Assembly: GCF_053078305.1 (NCBI RefSeq)
Contig: NZ_CP166879.1
Length of the DNA: 64,000 nucleotides
Direction: 5' to 3' (one strand)
Shown: positions 4,901 to 48,258 of the stretch, one piece after another
Layout of the letters: the number at the start of each line of letters is the position of its first letter
How positions within the stretch are numbered: the first letter of the stretch is position 1
Notes under the pieces: generated by a model
Databases searched by the model: none
What the model saw: only the letters and a program-made list of their open reading frames with translations
Told to the model about the DNA's origin: nothing
Position numbers and translations under genes: made by a program

Positions 4901-5731
4901 CCGTGCGGGGGATAGCGTCGGAATGGCGGTGAGTACTTTATCTACACAGCGTTGCCACTCATCTTCTGAAGCGAGTGAAAGATGATGACATAGACGTTGA
5001 TGCCAACTCGGCAGCGATTCTGCTTTGTGATTAGGTGGAATGATGGTGGTTACTGCGCCTTTTACTGGTTTATATTTGAGTTGAAGGGCAAAAAGGACGA
5101 TTTCAACGGCGCTTTCCAGACCACAGCGAATGACTAAGTCATCGACCAGTTCATCTGCAGAGTAAGAGTTCCAAAAACTCCAGAGCAATGCTGCATCAGA
5201 TTGCGCACTCCCTGTCTGTTGATTATCCAGAATTCGCCTTTGTAACTCAGCAAAAGCCTGCTGCCAGTTTTCTGGATAAGTGCGGTAATTGTTGTCGGGA
5301 TCATATGCCCTGGTGTTATCTGCAATACGCTTCCATATCTCACCGTCTTTGCGCAGATAATTGATCTCTCTGGGGCGAGAGCGATGAGGAAAAGCAAATC
5401 GGTTAATATCGTCAGTTACCGGAATAACTGCATCATCAGCCAGCCACGGGCGTTGGTTTTTACTCTCAGGGGAAGTTTCAACTTCAGGAGTGGCTTTGGT
5501 GATGGGGGGGATATGCACGTTTGCTGAAGCATTTTCCACATAGCCTTTTTTCGTTTTCTCCGCGATAAGCTTCAGTTTCGCTTTTTCCGCTGCTGCAACA
5601 TCAGCAAAATTTTTTACCTGGCTTTGCCCTTGGGTGCCAACTTTTCCCCAACTGATATGCAACTCGTTTCCCTGTTGCTCCACCGCCCAGAATTTATGTG
5701 ATTTTTCGTCCTGATAGATAAAGTGTCTCAT
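1922..5731 (-). CDS. molR: Large WGR-domain protein (molybdate metabolism regulator family), intact, 1269 aa
   Basis: Uninterrupted 1269-aa ORF next to metG. N-terminus MRHFIYQDEKSHKFWAVEQQGNELHISWGKVG is a WGR motif. Position matches the molR locus, which I recall as a fragmented pseudogene in K-12. Confidence 0.8.
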   Translation of the reverse strand: MRHFIYQDEKSHKFWAVEQQGNELHISWGKVGTQGQSQVKNFADVAAAEKAKLKLIAEKTKKGYVENASANVHIPPITKATPEVETSPESKNQRPWLADDAVIPVTDDINRFAFPHRSRPREINYLRKDGEIWKRIADNTRAYDPDNNYRTYPENWQQAFAELQRRILDNQQTGSAQSDAALLWSFWNSYSADELVDDLVIRCGLESAVEIVLFALQLKYKPVKGAVTTIIPPNHKAESLPSWHQRLCHHLSLASEDEWQRCVDKVLTAIPTLSPARQPFAALLLPERPDIAHAIALRYADQNVPAMTWLRLVITDDTALSTVEKYDFPPLYRDFRNFRAYLAMLLANNGVRGVSRILLEFTEDHSDNPTYLFERISETENLVKWLWKTNHPDAIQILILGVIGKKKHLEYLSKASQKHPAAAIAAYATLLAIHEDKEWRKALVKLITATPELVTDVIPWVNAKAAGILSECRPQPVAEECEYATVDMLPELLVSPPWMTKEKKKNTPVFDLPVLPVPSVSDVTPEITKKLTRTYLVTHFQQIAQQQATKQTLFTDLPPIKKASWEKHLIPLTPEQQILWHLGFEKWRESGEKIYEKIPAPQSAVDALLRFDFPALNAEFVQYHNNAYKSWNLIALCYLPGQQAISFLNQIVKEDNYSGEGNILAIFGSAAIPAFMACLQRDPRRLCFFPFFLGVSELALPMAQQLQKKMSYEDARNWLTDYPRHAAAGLLPVALGKKGKDRDCAHQALRLLVNLNQRETIEEIAQGYNQPDVLAALATLFDSDPLEEYPAKIAPLSGFYQFTLWRRPRLKSNNLPLSDDAMRHLGTMLSFPRDITAYAGLDIIREIFTRKSLAEFGWDLYTAWTEAGAPAKENWAFTSLGILGNDDTARKLTPLIRAWPGESQHKRAVYGLDVLASIGSDIALMLLNGIAQKIKFVALQEHASDRINMVAENRGLTMAELEDRLAPDLGLDSSGSLTLDFGPRQFTVGFDETLKPVVRDANGKVLKDLPKPNQSDEKNQATDAVNLFKQLKKDVRAIASQQITRLEQAMCQRRRWTAEQFRLFLVEHPLVRHLTRRLLWGVYNDENALITCFRVAEDSTYSDAQDELFTLPAGNIGIPHVLEIPPESAAAFRQIYVDYELLPPFQQLERGSYHLADNERNTHELTRWQGRLCQAGRIVGLERRGWQRLEESGSVYAMRKSTPYGALELETEPFSLIYGETGYSDLLPVESVKITAPYDRYGKQSSPTFSVLDDITASELINDIESLFD

Positions 5732-5830
5732 TCTGCATCCCTGTAATTTTATCCAGTTGAATGCAGATGCTACCAGTATTTATGCGGGTTAGAGAGAGAC
5801 AAAATCGCAAGAAAACAACTTTAGGAATAT

Positions 5831-5862
5831 ATAAAGAAAAGGCGCTGTCGATGCAGCGCCTT
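5831..5862 (-). terminator. Probable intrinsic terminator downstream of metG
   Basis: Inverted repeat ggcgctgtcgatgcagcgcc (5841-5860) followed on the minus strand by a T-rich run. Confidence 0.5.
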
Positions 5863-5871
5863 GAAGGGGGA

Positions 5872-7905
5872 TTATTTCACCTGATGACCCGGTTTAGCAC
5901 CGGCATCCGGGCTTAGCAGGAAAATATCTTTCCCGCCAGGACCGGCAGCCATCACCATGCCTTCAGAGATACCGAAGCGCATTTTACGTGGTGCCAGGTT
6001 AGCCACCATAATGGTGTGACGACCAATCAGTGCCTGCGGATCTGGGTAAGCAGAACGAATGCCGGAGAAGACATTGCGTTTTTCACCGCCGAGATCCAGC
6101 GTCAGGCGTAGCAGTTTGTCAGAACCTTCAACAAACTCTGCGTTTTCAATCAGCGCCACGCGCAGGTCAACTTTGGCGAAGTCGTCAAAGGTGATGGTTT
6201 CCTGAATCGGATCATCTGCCAGTGGGCCAGTAACTGGCGCGGCAGCTGCTTTCACTTCTTCTTTAGACGCTTCCACCAGTGCTTCAACCTGCTTCATATC
6301 TATGCGGTTATACAGCGCCTTGAACGGATTCACTTTATGGCCCAGCAGCGGTTGCTGGATACCATCCCAGGTCAGTTCTGTATTGAGGAATGCTTCTGCA
6401 CGTTCAGTCAGTTTCGGCAGTACCGGTTTCAGGTAGGTCATCAGCACGCGGAACAGGTTGATGCCCATCGAGCAAATTGCCTGCAGGTCGGCATCGCGGC
6501 CTTCCTGTTTCGCCACCACCCACGGAGCCTGTTCATCGACATAGCGGTTAGCCAGATCAGCCAGCGCCATGATTTCGCGCACTGCTTTACCAAATTCGCG
6601 GCTTTCCCACGCTTCACCAATCACTTCAGCGGCATCAGTGAAGGTTTTGTACAACTGCGGGTCAGCCAGTTCGCTTGCCAGCACACCGTCAAAACGCTTG
6701 TTGATAAAGCCCGCATTACGAGAGGCCAGGTTAACCACTTTGTTAACGATATCGGCATTCACGCGCTGAACGAAATCTTCCAGGTTGAGATCGATATCAT
6801 CAATGCGCGAAGAGAGTTTCGCAGTGTAGTAGTAACGCAGGCTGTCGGCGTCAAAATGATTCAGCCAGGTGCTGGCTTTAATAAAGGTACCGCGAGACTT
6901 GGACATCTTCGCGCCGTTCACCGTCACATAGCCGTGAACAAACAGGTTGGTCGGCTTGCGGAAGTTGCTACCTTCCAGCATTGCTGGCCAGAACAGGCTG
7001 TGGAAGTAAACGATATCTTTACCGATGAAGTGGTACAGCTCGGCGGTGGAGTCTTTCTTCCAGTATTCATCGAAGCTTACGCTATCGCCGCGCTTGTCGC
7101 ACAGATTCTTGAAAGAACCCATGTAGCCAATCGGTGCGTCCAGCCAGACGTAGAAATATTTGCCCGGCGCGTTCGGAATTTCAAAACCGAAGTACGGTGC
7201 GTCGCGGGATATATCCCACTGTTGCAGGCCAGATTCAAACCACTCCTGCATTTTGTTTGCCACCTGCTCCTGCAACGCACCGCTGCGGGTCCATGCCTGC
7301 AACATTTCGCTGAAAGAGGGCAGATCAAAGAAGAAGTGTTCAGAATCACGCATTACCGGGGTAGCGCCAGAAACCACCGATTTCGGCTCGATCAGTTCAG
7401 TCGGGCTGTAGGTCGCGCCGCAGACTTCGCAGTTATCGCCGTATTGATCCGGGGATTTACATTTCGGGCAGGTGCCTTTCACAAAACGGTCCGGCAGGAA
7501 CATGCCTTTTTCCGGATCGTACAGCTGAGAGATGGTGCGGTTTTTAATAAAACCGTTTTCTTTCAAGCGAGTATAGATAAGCTCAGACAACTGGCGGTTC
7601 TCTTCGCTGTGCGTCGAGTGATAGTTGTCATAGCTGATGTTAAAGCCTGCGAAATCAGTCTGATGCTCCTGACTCATTTCGCCAATCATCTGCTCCGGGG
7701 TGATACCAAGCTGCTGAGCTTTCAGCATGATCGGTGTACCGTGGGCATCGTCGGCGCAGATGAAGTTGACCTCGTGGCCGCGCATTCGCTGGTAACGGAC
7801 CCAGACATCAGCCTGGATGTGCTCCAGCATATGGCCGAGGTGGATTGAGCCGTTAGCGTACGGCAGTGCGCACGTCACCAGAATTTTCTTCGCGACTTGA
7901 GTCAT
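5872..7905 (-). CDS. metG: Methionine--tRNA ligase
   Basis: ORF translation contains [26 protein letters not shown] (HIGH-type motif) and KMSKS (in ...[10 protein letters not shown]...). Start taken at the MTQ methionine, 3 codons inside the track ORF. Confidence 0.95.
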
Positions 7906-8036
7906 AGTAGGCATTACTTCTTAATAGTGAAAAGGGGTTAGATAGTACCAAATGGGAAAATGTTAAGTAAGTACTTCTCTATATTCTTCAGGTAAACTAT
8001 CAGCTGATGGTTTATCTATACAAAAAAGGAGTCGGG

Positions 8037-9146
8037 ATGAACGAACAATCCCAGGCCAAATCACCAGAAGCCTTGCGCGCAATGGTCGCCGGGACACTGG
8101 CCAATTTTCAGCACCCAACCCTGAAGCATAACCTCACCACGCTGAAAGCGTTGCACCATGTCGCCTGGATGGACGACACGTTGCATGTGGAACTGGTTAT
8201 GCCATTCGTCTGGCATAGCGCGTTTGAAGAGTTAAAAGAGCAATGTAGCGCCGAACTGCTGCGTATCACCGGGGCGAAAGCTATCGACTGGAAACTGTCG
8301 CACAATATCGCCACCTTAAAACGCGTGAAGAATCAGCCGGGTATTAATGGCGTGAAGAACATCATTGCGGTCAGTTCCGGTAAAGGCGGCGTGGGTAAAT
8401 CCTCCACGGCGGTAAACCTGGCGCTGGCACTGGCGGCGGAAGGGGCGAAAGTCGGCATTCTGGACGCCGATATCTACGGCCCATCAATTCCCACCATGCT
8501 GGGCGCAGAAAATCAGCGTCCAACTTCGCCGGACGGTACCCATATGGCACCGATTATGTCTCATGGCCTGGCAACCAATTCAATTGGTTATCTGGTCACT
8601 GACGACAATGCGATGGTGTGGCGTGGACCGATGGCGAGCAAGGCGTTAATGCAGATGTTGCAGGAAACCTTGTGGCCGGATCTCGACTATCTGGTGCTTG
8701 ATATGCCGCCAGGCACCGGTGACATTCAATTGACGCTGGCGCAAAACATTCCAGTAACTGGTGCAGTCGTGGTCACCACCCCGCAGGACATCGCGTTGAT
8801 CGATGCGAAAAAAGGCATTGTGATGTTCGAGAAAGTCGAGGTTCCGGTGCTCGGTATTGTCGAGAACATGAGTGTGCATATTTGCAGTAACTGTGGTCAC
8901 CATGAACCGATTTTCGGTACCGGTGGTGCAGAGAAACTGGCTGAAAAATACCATACACAGCTGCTGGGGCAGATGCCGTTACACATCTCCTTACGTGAGG
9001 ATCTCGATAAAGGCACGCCAACGGTTATCAGCCGTCCGGAGAGCGAATTTACCGCTATCTACCGCCAGCTGGCTGACCGCGTTGCAGCTCAGCTCTACTG
9101 GCAGGGTGAAGTCATTCCAGGCGAGATTTCCTTCCGCGCGGTCTAA
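8037..9146 (+). CDS. mrp: Fe-S cluster carrier ATPase Mrp/ApbC
   Basis: Translation has the P-loop SGKGGVGKSST and a CxxC motif (CSNCGHHE). Divergent from metG as in E. coli. Start taken at MNEQSQAKSPE. Confidence 0.92.
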   Translation: MNEQSQAKSPEALRAMVAGTLANFQHPTLKHNLTTLKALHHVAWMDDTLHVELVMPFVWHSAFEELKEQCSAELLRITGAKAIDWKLSHNIATLKRVKNQPGINGVKNIIAVSSGKGGVGKSSTAVNLALALAAEGAKVGILDADIYGPSIPTMLGAENQRPTSPDGTHMAPIMSHGLATNSIGYLVTDDNAMVWRGPMASKALMQMLQETLWPDLDYLVLDMPPGTGDIQLTLAQNIPVTGAVVVTTPQDIALIDAKKGIVMFEKVEVPVLGIVENMSVHICSNCGHHEPIFGTGGAEKLAEKYHTQLLGQMPLHISLREDLDKGTPTVISRPESEFTAIYRQLADRVAAQLYWQGEVIPGEISFRAV

Positions 9147-16770: not shown

Positions 16771-16903
16771 AACCAAACGACTCGGGGTGCCCTTCTGCGT
16801 GAAGGCTGAGAAATACCCGTATCACCTGATCTGGATAATGCCAGCGTAGGGAAGTCACGGACCACCAGGTCATTGCTTCTTCACGCTATGGCAGGAGCAA
16901 ACT
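16771..16903 (+). ncRNA. TPP (thi-box) riboswitch in the thiM leader
   Basis: The leader aaccaaacgactcggggtgcccttctgcgtgaaggctgagaaatacccgtatcacctgatctggataatgccagcgtagggaa contains the conserved thi-box elements (ctgaga, acctgatctggataatgccagcg) immediately upstream of the thiM ATG. Confidence 0.85.
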
Positions 16904-30467: not shown

Positions 30468-31247
30468 ATGACGATGAATTCATTCGAGCGAAGGAATAAG
30501 ATCATCCAATTAGTGAATGAACAGGGAACCGTGCTTGTTCAGGATCTGGCGGGAGTATTTGCTGCCTCGGAAGCGACAATCCGTGCCGATTTGCGCTTTC
30601 TCGAACAAAAAGGCGTGGTTACGCGCTTTCATGGCGGTGCGGCGAAAATAATGTCCGGTAATAGTGAAACCGAGACCCAGGAAGTCGGGTTTAAAGAGCG
30701 ATTTCAGCTCGCCAGCGCGCCAAAAAACAGAATAGCGCAGGCGGCAGTCAAAATGATCCACGAAGGGATGACCGTTATTCTCGACAGCGGAAGTACGACA
30801 ATGCTTATCGCCGAAGGATTAATGACCGCCAAAAATATCACGGTGATTACCAACAGTCTCCCGGCAGCGTTTGCCCTTTCCGAAAATAAAGATATTACTC
30901 TGGTCGTCTGTGGTGGCACCGTCCGCCATAAAACGCGCTCGATGCATGGTTTCATTGCCGAGCGTTCATTGCAGGATATTAATGCCGATTTAATGTTTGT
31001 CGGTGCTGATGGTATTGATGCGGTTAATGGTATTACGACCTTTAATGAAGGTTATTCGATTAGCGGGGCGATGGTCACCGCCGCTAATAAAGTGATTGCC
31101 GTTCTCGATTCATCGAAATTTAACCGTCGCGGTTTTAATCAGGTACTGCCAATCGAAAAAATTGACATTATTATTACCGATGATGCTGTGTCAGAGGTGG
31201 ATAAACTGGCATTGCAGAAGACACGGGTAAAATTAATTACGGTGTAG
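30468..31247 (+). CDS. gatR: DeoR-family repressor of the gat operon, intact
   Basis: Continuous 259-aa ORF. I recall this gene being interrupted by an IS element in K-12; it is uninterrupted here. Confidence 0.88.
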   Translation: MTMNSFERRNKIIQLVNEQGTVLVQDLAGVFAASEATIRADLRFLEQKGVVTRFHGGAAKIMSGNSETETQEVGFKERFQLASAPKNRIAQAAVKMIHEGMTVILDSGSTTMLIAEGLMTAKNITVITNSLPAAFALSENKDITLVVCGGTVRHKTRSMHGFIAERSLQDINADLMFVGADGIDAVNGITTFNEGYSISGAMVTAANKVIAVLDSSKFNRRGFNQVLPIEKIDIIITDDAVSEVDKLALQKTRVKLITV

Positions 31248-31328: not shown

Positions 31329-32228
31329 TTAACGCAATAATGGACAATCTGGTGGTAATCGACAACGCAACGCCGCCGGAAGTATTTCAATATGGAAGTT
31401 TTGCCCACTCAACGGTTCGCCATCAAGATTAAAAGTGATTTCGTGTGGGGCTTGTATATCAAACCACGACGAAGCGCCTTCGATAATATTCGGGTTATCT
31501 TCGTCAGATTTTAAGGTTGATACGAGAGCCGGAAGAATTTCATCGCCGGTAAAAATGCGCAGTTGCAGCAAGCCATCGTTAATTAACGCGTTCGGGCACA
31601 ATTGTTGACCGCCACCGGCCTGACGCCCGTTACCAATACCAATGACCAGGGCGTCACCTTGCCAGTGAAAGTTTTCACCGCGGATTTCACAACGGTCCGG
31701 TTGCAGAGTATCCATGCGCATTAAGCCATGAATGATGTAAGAGACGCCACCCAGCGCGGCTTTTAATTTTTCCGGCGTTTCTGTGGTAATACGCGTCCCA
31801 AATCCGCCTGTCGCCATATTAATAAAACAGGTTTGTTTGTTGACCTGCGCCATATCTATCGCAATGGCGTTACCGGCAATTGCCAGTTTCAGCGCCTTAT
31901 CCAGTGCCTCAGGAATCCCTACACTGGTGGCAAAATCATTGGCGGTTCCTAATGGCAAAATTCCCAGCGCGGGTATGTCATCCCCCTCACACTGAATCAA
32001 CGCCGTAGAAACTTCATTAATGGTGCCATCGCCACCACCGGCAATCACCGTTGCGACGCCCAACTTCCGGGCCTCCTCTACATATCGTGCGGCATCGCCT
32101 TTCTCCCAGGTGACCCGCACATGGATCGTCATTCCTTCCTCACGCAACAGCATAATTGCTTCGCGCAATGGTAAATTGTCAGTACTTTTGCCATTAAGAA
32201 TCAGTAAGCTGGCGGGAAATTCTGCCAT
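31329..32228 (-). CDS. yegS: Lipid kinase (DAG-kinase-like catalytic domain)
   Basis: 299 aa containing a GGDGT motif. Confidence 0.9.
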
Positions 32229-32633
32229 GATCGTATGTGCCTTTATGATTGGTCTGTAGATAGTGTAGAGCAGAAAAGAAAAGGTGGAGTCAGAACAGGA
32301 TGAAAGTCGGAGGATAAATAGTCAGTTCAAGTATGGAGGATTCAGTGGTTACCACCAGGAGCTTGCAATGGGGACAGCGAATACTAACGGCAGCCACCGA
32401 TAAATTTCAAAAAAGAGCATATACCTAATATTCAACTAAACAGTGGCATCTTCAATATAATATATTAAAGCCTCCATGGAGTTACCCGGAAGGGCCTCCA
32501 TGTCCGTAATTCCTACTTATGTAGGAAATGTTGTACAGAACATTTATTATAATCCTATTCAATTATAATAATCATGCCATTATTATATTTAAACACTAGA
32601 GAGTGTCGTTGGTATTTAATGGGGGAAGGTGAG

Positions 32634-32951
32634 GTGAACAAGATAGCTGCTATATCATTAATTAGTGTTTTTCTTATGTCTGGTTGTGCTGTGCATAATG
32701 ATGAGACAAGTATCGGTAAATTTGGCCTTGCATATAAAAGTAATATTCAGCGTAAACTCGATAACCAATACTACACCGAAGCCGAAGCTTCTTTAGCCAG
32801 GGGCAGAATATCTGGTGCAGAAAATATAGTAAAAAATGATGCAGCCCATTTCTGTGTTACTCAGGGCAAAAAAATGCAGATAGTTGACCTGAAGACAGAA
32901 GGTGCAGGATTACATGGCGTCGCTCGTCTGACATTCAAATGTGGAGAGTGA
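32634..32951 (+). CDS. yegR: Small lipoprotein
   Basis: Start taken at the GTG giving MNKIAAISLISVFLMSGCAV (lipobox LMSGC), inside a longer track ORF. Confidence 0.65.
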   Translation: MNKIAAISLISVFLMSGCAVHNDETSIGKFGLAYKSNIQRKLDNQYYTEAEASLARGRISGAENIVKNDAAHFCVTQGKKMQIVDLKTEGAGLHGVARLTFKCGE

Positions 32952-33109
32952 GAATATTTTTTGGTAAGCGTCAAACATGCGCGTTCTGGTTGTGCTTAGC
33001 CGGAACCTGTGCGAGCACGATGCCAATAAGTGAAAGGCATCGTGCTATGAAGGGAAATTCTATCGATGTGGTCAATGGAAGATGGTTACCAGAGATAGGG
33101 CTTATGCAT

Positions 33110-33196
33110 AAAAAATAAGCCCGTGTAAGGGAGATTACACAGGCTAAGGAGGTGGTTCCTGGTACAGCTAGCATTTTATGGGTTATGTTTTTCAGC
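33110..33196 (-). ncRNA. cyaR: CyaR (RyeE) Hfq-dependent small RNA
   Basis: The minus strand reads gctgaaaaacataacccataaaatgctagctgtaccaggaaccacctccttagcctgtgtaatctcccttacacgggcttatttttt, which matches the CyaR sequence as I remember it, including its terminator hairpin and U-tail. Confidence 0.85.
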
Positions 33197-33280
33197 GAAA
33201 CGGATGATAACCTTAATAAATGCAGCTGTATGTGATCGGTTTCTAAGAATTTTCCATCCGGGAAAAATAATCGAAATTAA

Positions 33281-34642
33281 TCACTTACCGTGTGGGTTAC
33301 GCGTGGTTTCCCCGGAGAAATTACGCATCAGCAGAGCGTAATTGAGCTCAAGATCCTGCGGGACCGGGAGCCACACAGTATAACCATCGCCTGGTGCGAC
33401 CGGCATCGCTTCGCCTTTGGCGTTTTCCATATGCTCAAGGGTAAAGTTAATGTTGCCTTGCGGCGTCATCAGCTCAAGGCTGTCGCCAACGGAGAATTTA
33501 TTTTTCACCGCTACCGCCGCGAGGTCCCCCTTGCGCTCACCGGTAAACTCACCAACAAACTGCTGGCGGTCAGAAACCGAATAACCGTATTCGTAGTTCT
33601 GATAATCGTCGTGAGTATGACGACGCAGGAAACCTTCGGTATAGCCACGATGCGCCAGACCTTCCAGAGTTTCCAGCAGGCTGGTATCGAACGGTTTGCC
33701 CGCAGCGGCATCATCGATAGCTTTACGATAAACCTGTGCGGTGCGTGCGCAATAGTAGAAAGATTTAGTACGGCCTTCGATCTTCAGCGAATGCACGCCC
33801 ATTTTGGTCAGGCGCTCAACGTGGGCGATGGCACGCAGATCTTTCGAGTTCATAATGTAAGTGCCGTGTTCGTCTTCAAACGCGGTCATATACTCGCCCG
33901 GACGCTGGGCCTCTTCGATCATAAACACTTTGTCGGTTGGCGCGCCAATACCAAGCGTAGGCTCAACGTTTTGCACCGGAATCGGCTCGTACTTGTGTAC
34001 GATGTTGCCAACGTCATCTTCTTTACCTTCCTGTACGTTGTACTCCCAGCGGCAGGCGTTGGTGCAGGTTCCCTGGTTCGGGTCGCGTTTGTTAATGTAG
34101 CCCGAGAGCAGGCAGCGGCCGGAGTAGGCCATGCACAGTGCGCCGTGAACGAAGATCTCGATCTCCATATCCGGCACCTGATTGCGGATCTCTTCAATCT
34201 CTTCCAGCGACAGCTCGCGAGAGAGGATCACGCGGGTCAGGCCCATTTGCTGCCAGAATTTCACCGTCGCCCAGTTCACGGCGTTAGCCTGTACCGAGAG
34301 ATGGATCGGCATTTCAGGGAAGTGCTCACGCACCAGCATAATCAGCCCTGGATCGGACATAATCAGCGCATCCGGCCCCATTTCCACCACCGGTTTCAGG
34401 TCACGGATAAAGGTTTTCAGCTTGGCGTTGTGCGGTGCAATGTTGACCACGACATAAAACTTTTTCCCCAGCGCGTGGGCTTCATTGATGCCGAGCTGAA
34501 GGTTTTCGTGGTTGAATTCGTTGTTGCGCACACGCAGGGAGTAACGCGGCTGGCCCGCATAAACAGCATCTGCGCCATAAGCGAAAGCGTAACGCATATT
34601 TTTCAGCGTTCCCGCCGGGGAAAGGAGTTCCGGTTTAAACAT
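33281..34642 (-). CDS. yegQ: Peptidase U32-family protein
   Basis: 453 aa. Confidence 0.9.
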   Translation of the reverse strand: MFKPELLSPAGTLKNMRYAFAYGADAVYAGQPRYSLRVRNNEFNHENLQLGINEAHALGKKFYVVVNIAPHNAKLKTFIRDLKPVVEMGPDALIMSDPGLIMLVREHFPEMPIHLSVQANAVNWATVKFWQQMGLTRVILSRELSLEEIEEIRNQVPDMEIEIFVHGALCMAYSGRCLLSGYINKRDPNQGTCTNACRWEYNVQEGKEDDVGNIVHKYEPIPVQNVEPTLGIGAPTDKVFMIEEAQRPGEYMTAFEDEHGTYIMNSKDLRAIAHVERLTKMGVHSLKIEGRTKSFYYCARTAQVYRKAIDDAAAGKPFDTSLLETLEGLAHRGYTEGFLRRHTHDDYQNYEYGYSVSDRQQFVGEFTGERKGDLAAVAVKNKFSVGDSLELMTPQGNINFTLEHMENAKGEAMPVAPGDGYTVWLPVPQDLELNYALLMRNFSGETTRNPHGK

Positions 34643-34744: not shown

Positions 34745-35041
34745 TTAGCTCCAGTGTAAATGTCTGGTGGCGTCCTGGTTTTGGTTAAGGATACGAATGA
34801 CGATAATTTCCCCTGGTGATTGCAGGAAATAAATTACGTGGCGTTCAAAAGGAAGAACAAAAATACCTTCGCCTAATTCAGGTCTGGGCGTACCTATATT
34901 ATTGTTACTCAGAATCTGGAGAACGTCTGAAAGATGTTCCACATATCTGTCGGCTTGTGGTTCGCCGAAATGGTGATAACTGTAATACCAGATGCCTTCT
35001 AAATCCTCATTGGCTTTTGGCATGAGTTTAATAATACGCAC
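34745..35041 (-). CDS. ParE/RelE-superfamily type II toxin
   Basis: 98 aa; N-terminus MRIIKLMPKANEDLEGIWYY resembles ParE toxins. Its start lies 2 bp after the stop of the upstream antitoxin ORF. Confidence 0.65.
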   Translation of the reverse strand: MRIIKLMPKANEDLEGIWYYSYHHFGEPQADRYVEHLSDVLQILSNNNIGTPRPELGEGIFVLPFERHVIYFLQSPGEIIVIRILNQNQDATRHLHWS

Positions 35042-35042
35042 A

Positions 35043-35294
35043 TTATTTCCTTATCCCTGCTTTCACCTTCCGTAAAAACGCGTCCTTTTCCCACGGCTGA
35101 GCTTCACCACTACTCAACCCTTCTGCAAGCATGTCACGTAATGCTTGCAGGCGAGACTCTGCTTGCTTTTCTCGAAGTAAGCGCAGTGACTCACGGATCA
35201 CTTCGCTTTGGGTGCGATAGTCGCCGGATTCAATTAAGGACTCGATAAATTCACGCAACTCATCGCCGAGATCAACCGTCATCGTTCTGGCCAT
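35043..35294 (-). CDS. ParD-like (ribbon-helix-helix) antitoxin
   Basis: 83 aa, acidic and helical (MARTMTVDLGDELREFIESLIESGDYRTQSEVIRESLRLLREKQ); sits immediately upstream of the toxin on the same strand. Confidence 0.65.
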   Translation of the reverse strand: MARTMTVDLGDELREFIESLIESGDYRTQSEVIRESLRLLREKQAESRLQALRDMLAEGLSSGEAQPWEKDAFLRKVKAGIRK

Positions 35295-47254: not shown

Positions 47255-47400
47255 GATTTCAGCGGGATGCTGAAACGGGAAAGCCCCTCCCGAGGAAGGG
47301 GTCTTAAATAAGGAAAGGGTCATGATGAAGATACTCATCATCGTGGTGCTCTTAGTGATTAGCTACCCAGCATACTAAGACTACCAGGGCGGGGGAAACC
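47255..47400 (-). ncRNA. Sib-family antisense RNA, copy 1 (ends approximate)
   Basis: Placed by analogy: Sib RNAs are transcribed opposite to, and fully overlap, the ibs ORF. Ends cannot be fixed from sequence alone. Confidence 0.4.
47322..47378 (+). CDS. Ibs-family type I toxin, copy 1 (18 aa: MMKILIIVVLLVISYPAY)
   Basis: Mini-ORF preceded by aaggaaagggtc; the peptide has the characteristic Ibs hydrophobic sequence. Confidence 0.8.
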   Translation: MMKILIIVVLLVISYPAY

Positions 47401-47582
47401 CCGCTCTACCCTCACTCCTGAAAGTATGCCTTCACGTTCAGAATGTCAATCCGCAGGCTTTGCAGTCTGCGATCCTGCCAGCAAATATTCTTTGCGAGAC
47501 GTTACGCAATAATAACACAGGAAACTATTTTATCTACGCGTTAGCGATAGACTGAATTCAGGGCGAAAGGAGGTAAGCCGAC

Positions 47583-47728
47583 GATTTCAGCGGGACGCTG
47601 AAACGGGAAAGCCCCTCCCGAGGAAGGGGCCTTAAATAAGGAAAGGGTCATGATGAAGTGGATCATCATCGTGGTGCGCTTAGTCATAAGCTTCCCGGCT
47701 TACTAAGACTACCAGGGCGGGGGAAACC
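47583..47728 (-). ncRNA. Sib-family antisense RNA, copy 2 (ends approximate)
   Basis: As copy 1. Confidence 0.4.
47650..47706 (+). CDS. Ibs-family type I toxin, copy 2 (18 aa: MMKWIIIVVRLVISFPAY)
   Basis: Same position within repeat unit 2. Confidence 0.8.
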   Translation: MMKWIIIVVRLVISFPAY

Positions 47729-47919
47729 CCGCTCTACCCTCACTCCTGAAAGTATGCCTTCACGATAAGATTGTCAATCTGCAGGCTTTGCAGTCTGCGA
47801 TCCTGCCAGCAAATATTCTTTGCGAGTCGTTACGCAATAATCATAGAGGGAACTATTTTGTTCACGCGTTAGCGATAGACTGCATTCAGGGCGAAAGGAG
47901 GTAAGCCGACGATTTCAGC

Positions 47920-48070
47920 GGGACGCTGAAACGGGAAACACTCTCCCGGAGAAGAGGGCTTTTAATAAGGAAAGGGTTATGATGAAGCACGTCATCATAC
48001 TGGTGATACTCTTGGTGATTAGCTTCCAGGCTTACTAAGAACACCAGGGGGAGGGGGAAACCTCTCCCTA
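47920..48070 (-). ncRNA. Sib-family antisense RNA, copy 3 (ends approximate)
   Basis: As copy 1. Confidence 0.4.
47989..48048 (+). CDS. Ibs-family type I toxin, copy 3 (19 aa: MMKHVIILVILLVISFQAY)
   Basis: Same position within repeat unit 3. Confidence 0.8.
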
Positions 48071-48258
48071 ACCCTCACTCCTGAAATTATGTCACTCCGC
48101 CCTTAGTGTCAATCGACGGCTCTCCGTTCTTGCGAGGCGAATAGCAAAATTTTCTGCGCCGCCGGGCCTAATTCTGAAAGTTTCTTCGTTTGCTCTTATT
48201 TCATTATTGCAATCGGTATGATACCGGACCTCAATAATTCTCTAAGAAAGGATTTCTT

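Follow-up and report, generated by a model that had tools for sequence, protein, structure and literature searches.

The interval between yegS and yegQ in a 64,000-nucleotide stretch of contig NZ_CP166879.1 (NCBI RefSeq assembly GCF_053078305.1; the whole stretch is called the window in the following) very probably represents the ordinary free state of the preferred integration site of phage P2 (locI) at the 3′ end of the small RNA (sRNA) gene cyaR, with the block around yegR as an older P2-like fossil. An earlier note on this DNA had pointed to the absence of the P2-remnant genes ogrK and yegZ of E. coli K-12 and had considered the AT-rich stretch 32230-32580 as the empty site or a scar. The absence was confirmed, but the site is located elsewhere, in the terminator of cyaR at 33109-33136.

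Results

Positions 33109-33136 on the plus strand (TAAAAAATAAGCCCGTGTAAGGGAGATT) agree in 28 of 28 nucleotides with the annotated attP core, the integrase (Int) core site, of P2 (AF063097, 24355-24382). With the P2 segment D-ogr-attP-int-C as query, this 28-nt core was the sole significant blastn match in the window, where it occurs in a single intact copy. The DNA on either side is non-phage, and no phage genes (D, ogr, int, C) were found by tblastn or blastn. Both the K-12 remnant and prophages in other strains have their breakpoint at the same core. Identity with attP and the occupied sites in these strains point to 33109-33136 as an unoccupied attB, that is locI. Searches with P2 Ogr, K-12 OgrK, the gpD C-terminus, yegZ and Int by tblastn gave a best E-value of 0.38 across the 64-kb window; within 32100-33400 the best match of the same queries comprised 18 residues (E of about 0.07) and was situated inside yegS. 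The search by which the earlier note proposed to challenge the absence of ogrK and yegZ therefore returned no ogr- or gpD-like match.

The cyaR gene (ryeE) was found at 33113-33198 on the minus strand, next to yegQ as the earlier note had it, with 100.7 bits in comparison to a gathering score of 47 and in full length (Rfam RF00112, model positions 1-85). At a permissive E-value CyaR was the sole RNA family found over 32200-33300. The distance from the yegQ stop to cyaR is 83 nt, and the promoter region of cyaR is 98% identical to that of K-12 over 249 nt. This neighbourhood is widely conserved: one genome per species was scanned with the conserved CyaR motif, resulting in 120 Enterobacterales loci, and yegQ precedes cyaR in nearly all of those that hold upstream sequence. 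The terminator consists of a stem of 11 pairs (33145-33118) and a T-tail (33117-33108), and the P2 core covers its loop, its 3′ stem arm and the U-tract. According to established P2 biology, the integrase, a tyrosine recombinase, would together with IHF recombine attP with this core. Since an incoming phage brings its own identical core, the terminator would be left intact, and lysogens would keep it by way of the phage-borne copy.

The K-12 layout given in the earlier note, with ogrK and yegZ between cyaR and yegR, matches the annotation of NC_000913. There, cyaR (2167114-2167200) is followed by the ‘cryptic prophage PR-X’ (2167183-2167811; 629 bp, with ogrK and a yegZ pseudogene), and then by yegR and yegS. 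The window aligns colinearly with K-12 at 97-98% identity (33350..33102 with 2166960..2167208 and 33127..32150 with 2167812..2168790), PR-X being the sole interruption in the aligned region. Over 641 nt, which comprise a D′ fragment, ogr and the P arm, the K-12 insertion shows 96.7% identity with P2; its border towards cyaR is a full core, and the one towards yegR a partial core of 19-20 nt. Neither an ogr-type open reading frame (ORF) nor a gpD C-terminal fragment, by which PR-X is recognized, occurs between cyaR and yegR in the window.

The same alignment bears on the stretch 32230-32580. This is the spacer between yegS and yegR, and K-12 holds it colinearly at about 97% identity while carrying ogrK and yegZ elsewhere, so that the two genes would not sit there. 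The breakpoints of the K-12 insertion coincide with the core at 33109-33136, outside this stretch and about 530 bp further to the right. The features that had drawn attention to the spacer are real in part. Its GC content of 38.5% is indeed low, although the AT-rich part is concentrated at about 32400-32700 (30-32% GC) and 32200-32400 reaches about 46%. The motif GCCTCCATG occurs twice, at 32470 and 32494, and the palindrome CTCCATGGAG is likewise present; in their folding, however, the palindrome and repeat at 32470-32502 do not exceed random expectation (z −1.5 and −1.3, equalled by 14 and 19 of 200 shuffles), and the palindromes are not attachment-site remnants. A decayed att-like copy does exist at 32315-32371, but K-12 shows it as well, and its origin can therefore not lie in PR-X; it belongs to a far older event, described below. 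That this stretch is the empty site or scar of ogrK and yegZ, as its low GC content, palindrome, direct repeat and att-like copy might suggest, consequently deserves almost no credence. Inverted repeats at 32544-32593 are AT-rich and of low complexity and were discounted.

The state of the site was surveyed in 5,426 complete E. coli genomes, using a 100-nt probe centred on the core as a test of contiguity and the junction of D′, partial core and flank as the mark of the K-12 state. A contiguous empty site was found in 4,145 genomes (76%), and the K-12-type junction in 358, all sampled carriers of which were laboratory derivatives of K-12. The remaining genomes with a split probe, about 920, set an upper bound of up to about 17% for other occupants, since some of the splits are mere local sequence variation. 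The occupants in sampled split genomes were P2-like prophages, of which both kinds of junction were seen: yegR-flank-core-int-C-cox in ON470606 and EC-7215 (attL), and tape measure-tail-D-ogr-core-cyaR in O157:H7 H6437 and PCP06022 (attR). In IMG/VR, 80 prophage contigs end at or near yegR.

Such heavy use by occupants other than the K-12 remnant could also mean that the lineage of the window once held a K-12-type remnant or a full P2 prophage and lost it precisely, as excision by Int and Cox would be traceless. The K-12 remnant, however, has no int gene and its second core is truncated, which makes its precise excision unlikely, and its confinement to the 358 genomes mentioned above likewise speaks against this course of events. 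The uninterrupted state, present in 76% of the genomes and in diverse strains, is the one that parsimony favours as ancestral in E. coli. A healed excision in this lineage thus has a very small chance of being the right explanation. We regard the free P2 site and the absence of ogrK and yegZ as ordinary, already known strain variation; K-12 is the exception and an atypical reference at the cyaR-yegR site.

The second part of our finding concerns the DNA between the core and yegS. Most of the yegS-holding loci among the 120 show the order yegQ-cyaR-yegS with no yegR, and yegS starts about 130-200 nt after the cyaR motif in most of these and up to about 600 nt after it in some genera. Escherichia CP089930 (‘E69’) and Escherichia sp. 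E1V33 also have yegS directly after cyaR. Both align with window positions 33400..33110 and 32309..31900 and lack the intervening 800 bp, with the break exactly at the edge of the core. The ancestral cyaR-yegS spacer, which in the window extends over 32229-32308 and ends in GGATGAAAGTC, is located 7 nt from the cyaR terminator in these two genomes. It would have been the first bacterial arm of the attachment site, with yegS as the immediate downstream neighbour of cyaR. The 800 bp (32309-33108, referred to as the yegR island) directly adjoin the P2 core at its outer edge, have a GC content of 40.1% compared to 50.4% for the window, and include yegR, whose presence the earlier note had correctly stated. 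At a coverage of at least 80%, the interior of the island was found in 5,409 of the 5,426 E. coli genomes; a search of the 120 loci for island DNA matched only Escherichia, besides the loci with a yegR homologue.

Both ends of the island resemble P2 attachment DNA. On the yegS side, 32315-32371 (plus strand) is identical to attP of P2 (1501-1558 of the extracted P2 locus L002) in 39 of 58 positions. This attL-type relic consists of a decayed core copy in direct orientation (32315-32342), 6 nt from the ancestral flank GGATGAAAGTC, and of a P′-proximal-like flank; counted on the alignments, the core copy retains 18 of 28 nucleotides in the window, 19 in K-12 and 22 in Escherichia sp. MOD1-EC7003. 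Its local score of 18 was reached by none of 5000 dinucleotide shuffles (z 7.6), and in the whole window only the true core scores higher. A core-like match at most 10 nt from the predicted spot arose in 12 of 20000 shuffles. On the cyaR side, 33049-33097 (plus strand), the present ‘bacterial’ arm of attB, aligns with the P arm of P2 (1425-1473) with a local score of 21 (0 of 5000 shuffles, z 11); the three pairings of arms used as controls did not reach significance. This P-arm relic contains the 3′ half of the ogr terminator, an Int arm-binding site with an exact TCGATGTGGTCAATG, and the start of the IHF site. The TCGATGTGGTCAATG motif, situated at 33063-33077 and 31 nt from the core, is a near-intact Int arm-binding repeat by the P2 annotation. 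It fits tgTGGaCa, the arm-repeat consensus of P2-type phages (PMC3448106).

Better-preserved ends were found in Escherichia sp. MOD1-EC7003, which has the island with yegR largely deleted. Here, the core with its P′ copy agrees with P2 in 45 of 58 positions (78%), and the P arm is spaced throughout as in P2, the IHF-site region included (51 of 78, 65%), where E. coli has a 16-nt deletion. This E. coli-specific deletion places GGGCTTAT beside the core's ATAAGCCC, and the two pair in an 8-bp hairpin across the attB edge (33098-33122, plus strand, z −3.9) that is found neither in P2 nor in MOD1-EC7003. A perfect 11-bp hairpin at 33014-33046, obtained from repeat search and folding, lies 62 nt past the yegR stop, in the same position as the ogr terminator in P2. 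With −23.8 kcal/mol it is more stable than all of 200 shuffles (z −6.3); it has no T-run and was not called as an intrinsic terminator.

The resulting order, B-core-P′ ... P-core-cyaR, is exactly that of integrated P2. From the correct order and orientation of the arms at both ends, together with the precise empty site in relatives, we infer that 32309-33108 is what is left of a P2-like prophage that integrated much earlier and then collapsed, a reading with strong comparative support. The yegS side of such a prophage would keep a decayed attL-type copy (core and P′) and the cyaR side a P-arm relic, and the present attB would be the attR of the fossil.

Alternatively, the ends may be no fossil marks at all: P2-like phages could have taken up host flank by aberrant excision, or AT-rich DNA could match P2 by chance next to an unrelated insertion of yegR. 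The lack of phage genes in the island and the fact that yegR homologues are not phage-borne fit this explanation, as does a score of the attL relic little above that of the best background segment. It does not account for the agreement of each end with the correct arm in order and orientation (core-P′ on the yegS side, P-core on the cyaR side), for an insertion point exactly at the core edge, or for the non-significant control pairings. In addition, the P-arm match is the annotated, consensus-type Int arm-binding site, and MOD1-EC7003 keeps the fuller P arm along with its 78%-identical core-P′ copy. We consider this alternative quite unlikely.

Several points nevertheless weigh against a free attB beside a P2-like fossil. 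The attB role of 33109-33136 is itself deduced from sequence identity and from sites occupied elsewhere, and the count of about 920 split genomes is an upper limit for the occupancy. No recognizable phage genes or pseudogenes were found in the island with P2 queries, phage records, IMG/VR and the 120 loci, so that the fossil is deduced from its ends only. Of these, the attL relic scores modestly above a chance segment inside yegS (18 compared to 16); its weight comes from its position, its orientation and the better-preserved copy in MOD1-EC7003. Furthermore, the island is patchily distributed among non-coli Escherichia. Finally, a yegR homologue inside any phage was not found, the matches in phage records and IMG/VR being host flank.

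Two further variants of the island were observed. In E. coli EcPNK006, an IS2 element is inserted within the attL relic (positions 1261-2489 of its locus, corresponding to about 32337 in the window). In BCE049, ST131 and other E. coli an extra AT-rich block of 170 bp follows right after the yegR stop (junction at 32956 in the window; 1063-1236 of locus L007). Since MOD1-EC7003 shows this block as well, its absence from the window, K-12 and E. coli C is probably due to a deletion.

The yegR gene (32634-32951, plus strand, 105 aa) encodes a small putative lipoprotein. It is assigned from its ORF and the K-12 annotation, starts at the GTG that is also used in K-12 and has an N-terminal, lipobox-like signal (...FLMSGC); ‘lipoprotein YegR’ is its name in some RefSeq records. 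Only 161 bp separate its stop from cyaR. No match was obtained in the local Pfam-A copy, and precomputed annotation assigns PF27694:YegR. Almost all homologues belong to E. coli/Shigella, and distant ones (48-59% identical) were found in unrelated chromosomal or insertion sequence (IS)-flanked contexts. Among 50,697 phage records, tblastn and blastn matched only two, both with host flank. Each of the 80 matches in IMG/VR is yegR of E. coli at 94-99% identity, and with few exceptions they lie at the contig edge or at most about 1.6 kb from it. A role of yegR as phage cargo is thus unsupported, though not refuted. Inactivation of yegR gave no phenotype in glucose-limited chemostat competition (PMC3708739).

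The interval is bordered by two ORFs on the minus strand, whose coordinates make the gap exactly 32229-33280: yegS (31329-32228, 299 aa), a lipid kinase, and yegQ/trhP (33281-34642, 453 aa), the upstream neighbour of cyaR. Both names follow the RefSeq annotation, for yegS that of a 99.9% identical record. Between yegQ and yegP, a ParE toxin (98 aa, Pfam E-value 1.8e-13) and a ParD antitoxin (83 aa, 4.3e-19) are encoded at 34745-35294 on the minus strand. The yegQ-yegP spacer measures 146 bp in K-12, and the whole 895-bp version of the window was found in 1,843 of the 5,426 E. coli genomes. Three tandem copies of SIB RNA (Sib antitoxin) occur on the minus strand at 47307-47449, 47635-47777 and 47964-48112; with 136-147 bits they reach the Rfam gathering score. 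As we take K-12 to have two copies (SibA/SibB) at this locus, a difference in copy number is possible. The galactitol repressor gene gatR (DeoR family, 259 aa; 30468-31247, plus strand) is intact, whereas the K-12 copy is split by IS3E. A thiamine pyrophosphate (TPP) riboswitch at 16773-16869 (plus strand, 71.2 bits compared to a gathering score of 54.3) is an ordinary feature.

Discussion

As stated in the earlier note, the finding carries little weight, because an E. coli other than K-12 that lacks the K-12-specific fragment and has a free P2 site represents the majority state. In outline, this free state has reportedly been known since P2 attachment sites were mapped. Of more use are the corrections: the attachment site is located in the cyaR terminator at 33109-33136 and not in the yegS-yegR spacer, and K-12 is an atypical reference. 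The fossil adds modestly to a familiar kind of finding, the prophage remnant. An 800-bp island with decayed P2 attachment edges explains why only E. coli and a close relative have an orphan gene of low GC content between cyaR and yegS. For genome evolution and annotation, it is of modest interest that eroded phages of successive generations have piled up at a single sRNA terminator. The classical ‘attB’ itself is suggested to carry a relic arm site with a possible effect on integration preference. No description of a fossil at cyaR-yegR was found in the searchable literature, whose coverage does not extend to two key older papers on the P2 site and K-12.

It is a speculative and rather unlikely extension that P2 integrase might still be recruited by the Int arm relic beside the core, which would aid the preference for locI, and that yegR might be phage cargo. 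If this were true, phages that repeatedly integrate at the cyaR terminator and erode there, as represented by the fossil, PR-X, the E. albertii remnant described below and live prophages, would deliver genes like yegR.

Use of the site is not restricted to E. coli. In several Citrobacter and Enterobacter loci, Ogr or gpD is encoded beside cyaR. E. albertii NBRC 107761 has the cyaR core, a P2-like P arm, three ORFs (258, 269 and 181 aa) and then yegS (positions 4903-8412 of the locus). Judged by eye from size, order and sequence, the three ORFs are presumably cdtA, cdtB and cdtC; a toxin operon would then have stayed behind here as part of a P2-type remnant. Apparent IS fragments were also seen by eye in this remnant. 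Together with the Citrobacter and Enterobacter occupants, E. albertii indicates that repeated P2-type traffic at the cyaR terminator is general. A contig of 9.7 kb binned as ‘Collinsella sp.’ in a metagenome-assembled genome (JAIJJM010000051) has cyaR at its start as well as coding sequences for Ogr (100% identical) and gpD (98%), and almost certainly stems from an E. coli P2 prophage that contaminates the bin.

In comparison with known systems, the site of the window is closest to locI of E. coli C, the classical P2 host. This strain is colinear with the window at 97.5% identity; its attB is situated in the same place (yegR-cyaR-yegQ), has a core equal to attP and the same flanks, except that the A-run of the core is longer by one A on its outer side. 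As work attributed to Yu et al. (1989) and to Barreiro and Haggard-Ljungquist (1992) is said to have established, locI of E. coli C is the preferred P2 site; the latter authors are also said to have reported a P2-like remnant at the P2 attachment site of K-12 derivatives. The title of Barreiro and Haggard-Ljungquist (J Bacteriol 174:4086) is cited in PMC8421802 and PMC3091744. PR-X shares the core with the window and shows the occupied and then eroded order D′ fragment-ogr-P arm-core-cyaR. Compared to the yegR island it is young, whereas the island is old, has become fixed in E. coli and retains no phage genes. The remnant of E. albertii NBRC 107761 is likewise P2-derived and located at the same cyaR core, but its cargo is different, consisting of three ORFs and IS-like fragments instead of yegR.

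Integration at the 3′ end of small RNA, tRNA or tmRNA genes, where the phage supplies a copy that restores the gene, is known from other temperate phages. Phages of the 186 type integrate in tRNA genes. Fels-2 and SopE-phi integrate in ssrA (PMC3448106), and the sdsR locus serves as an attachment site as well (PMC3333887), although P2-type integrases mostly integrate ‘between other genes’ (PMC3448106). As in these cases, the core in the window extends into an RNA gene, here into its terminator, and the RNA would be kept intact by the copy that the phage brings; in contrast, the target is the gene of an Hfq-dependent sRNA, cyaR, and not a tRNA-like gene.

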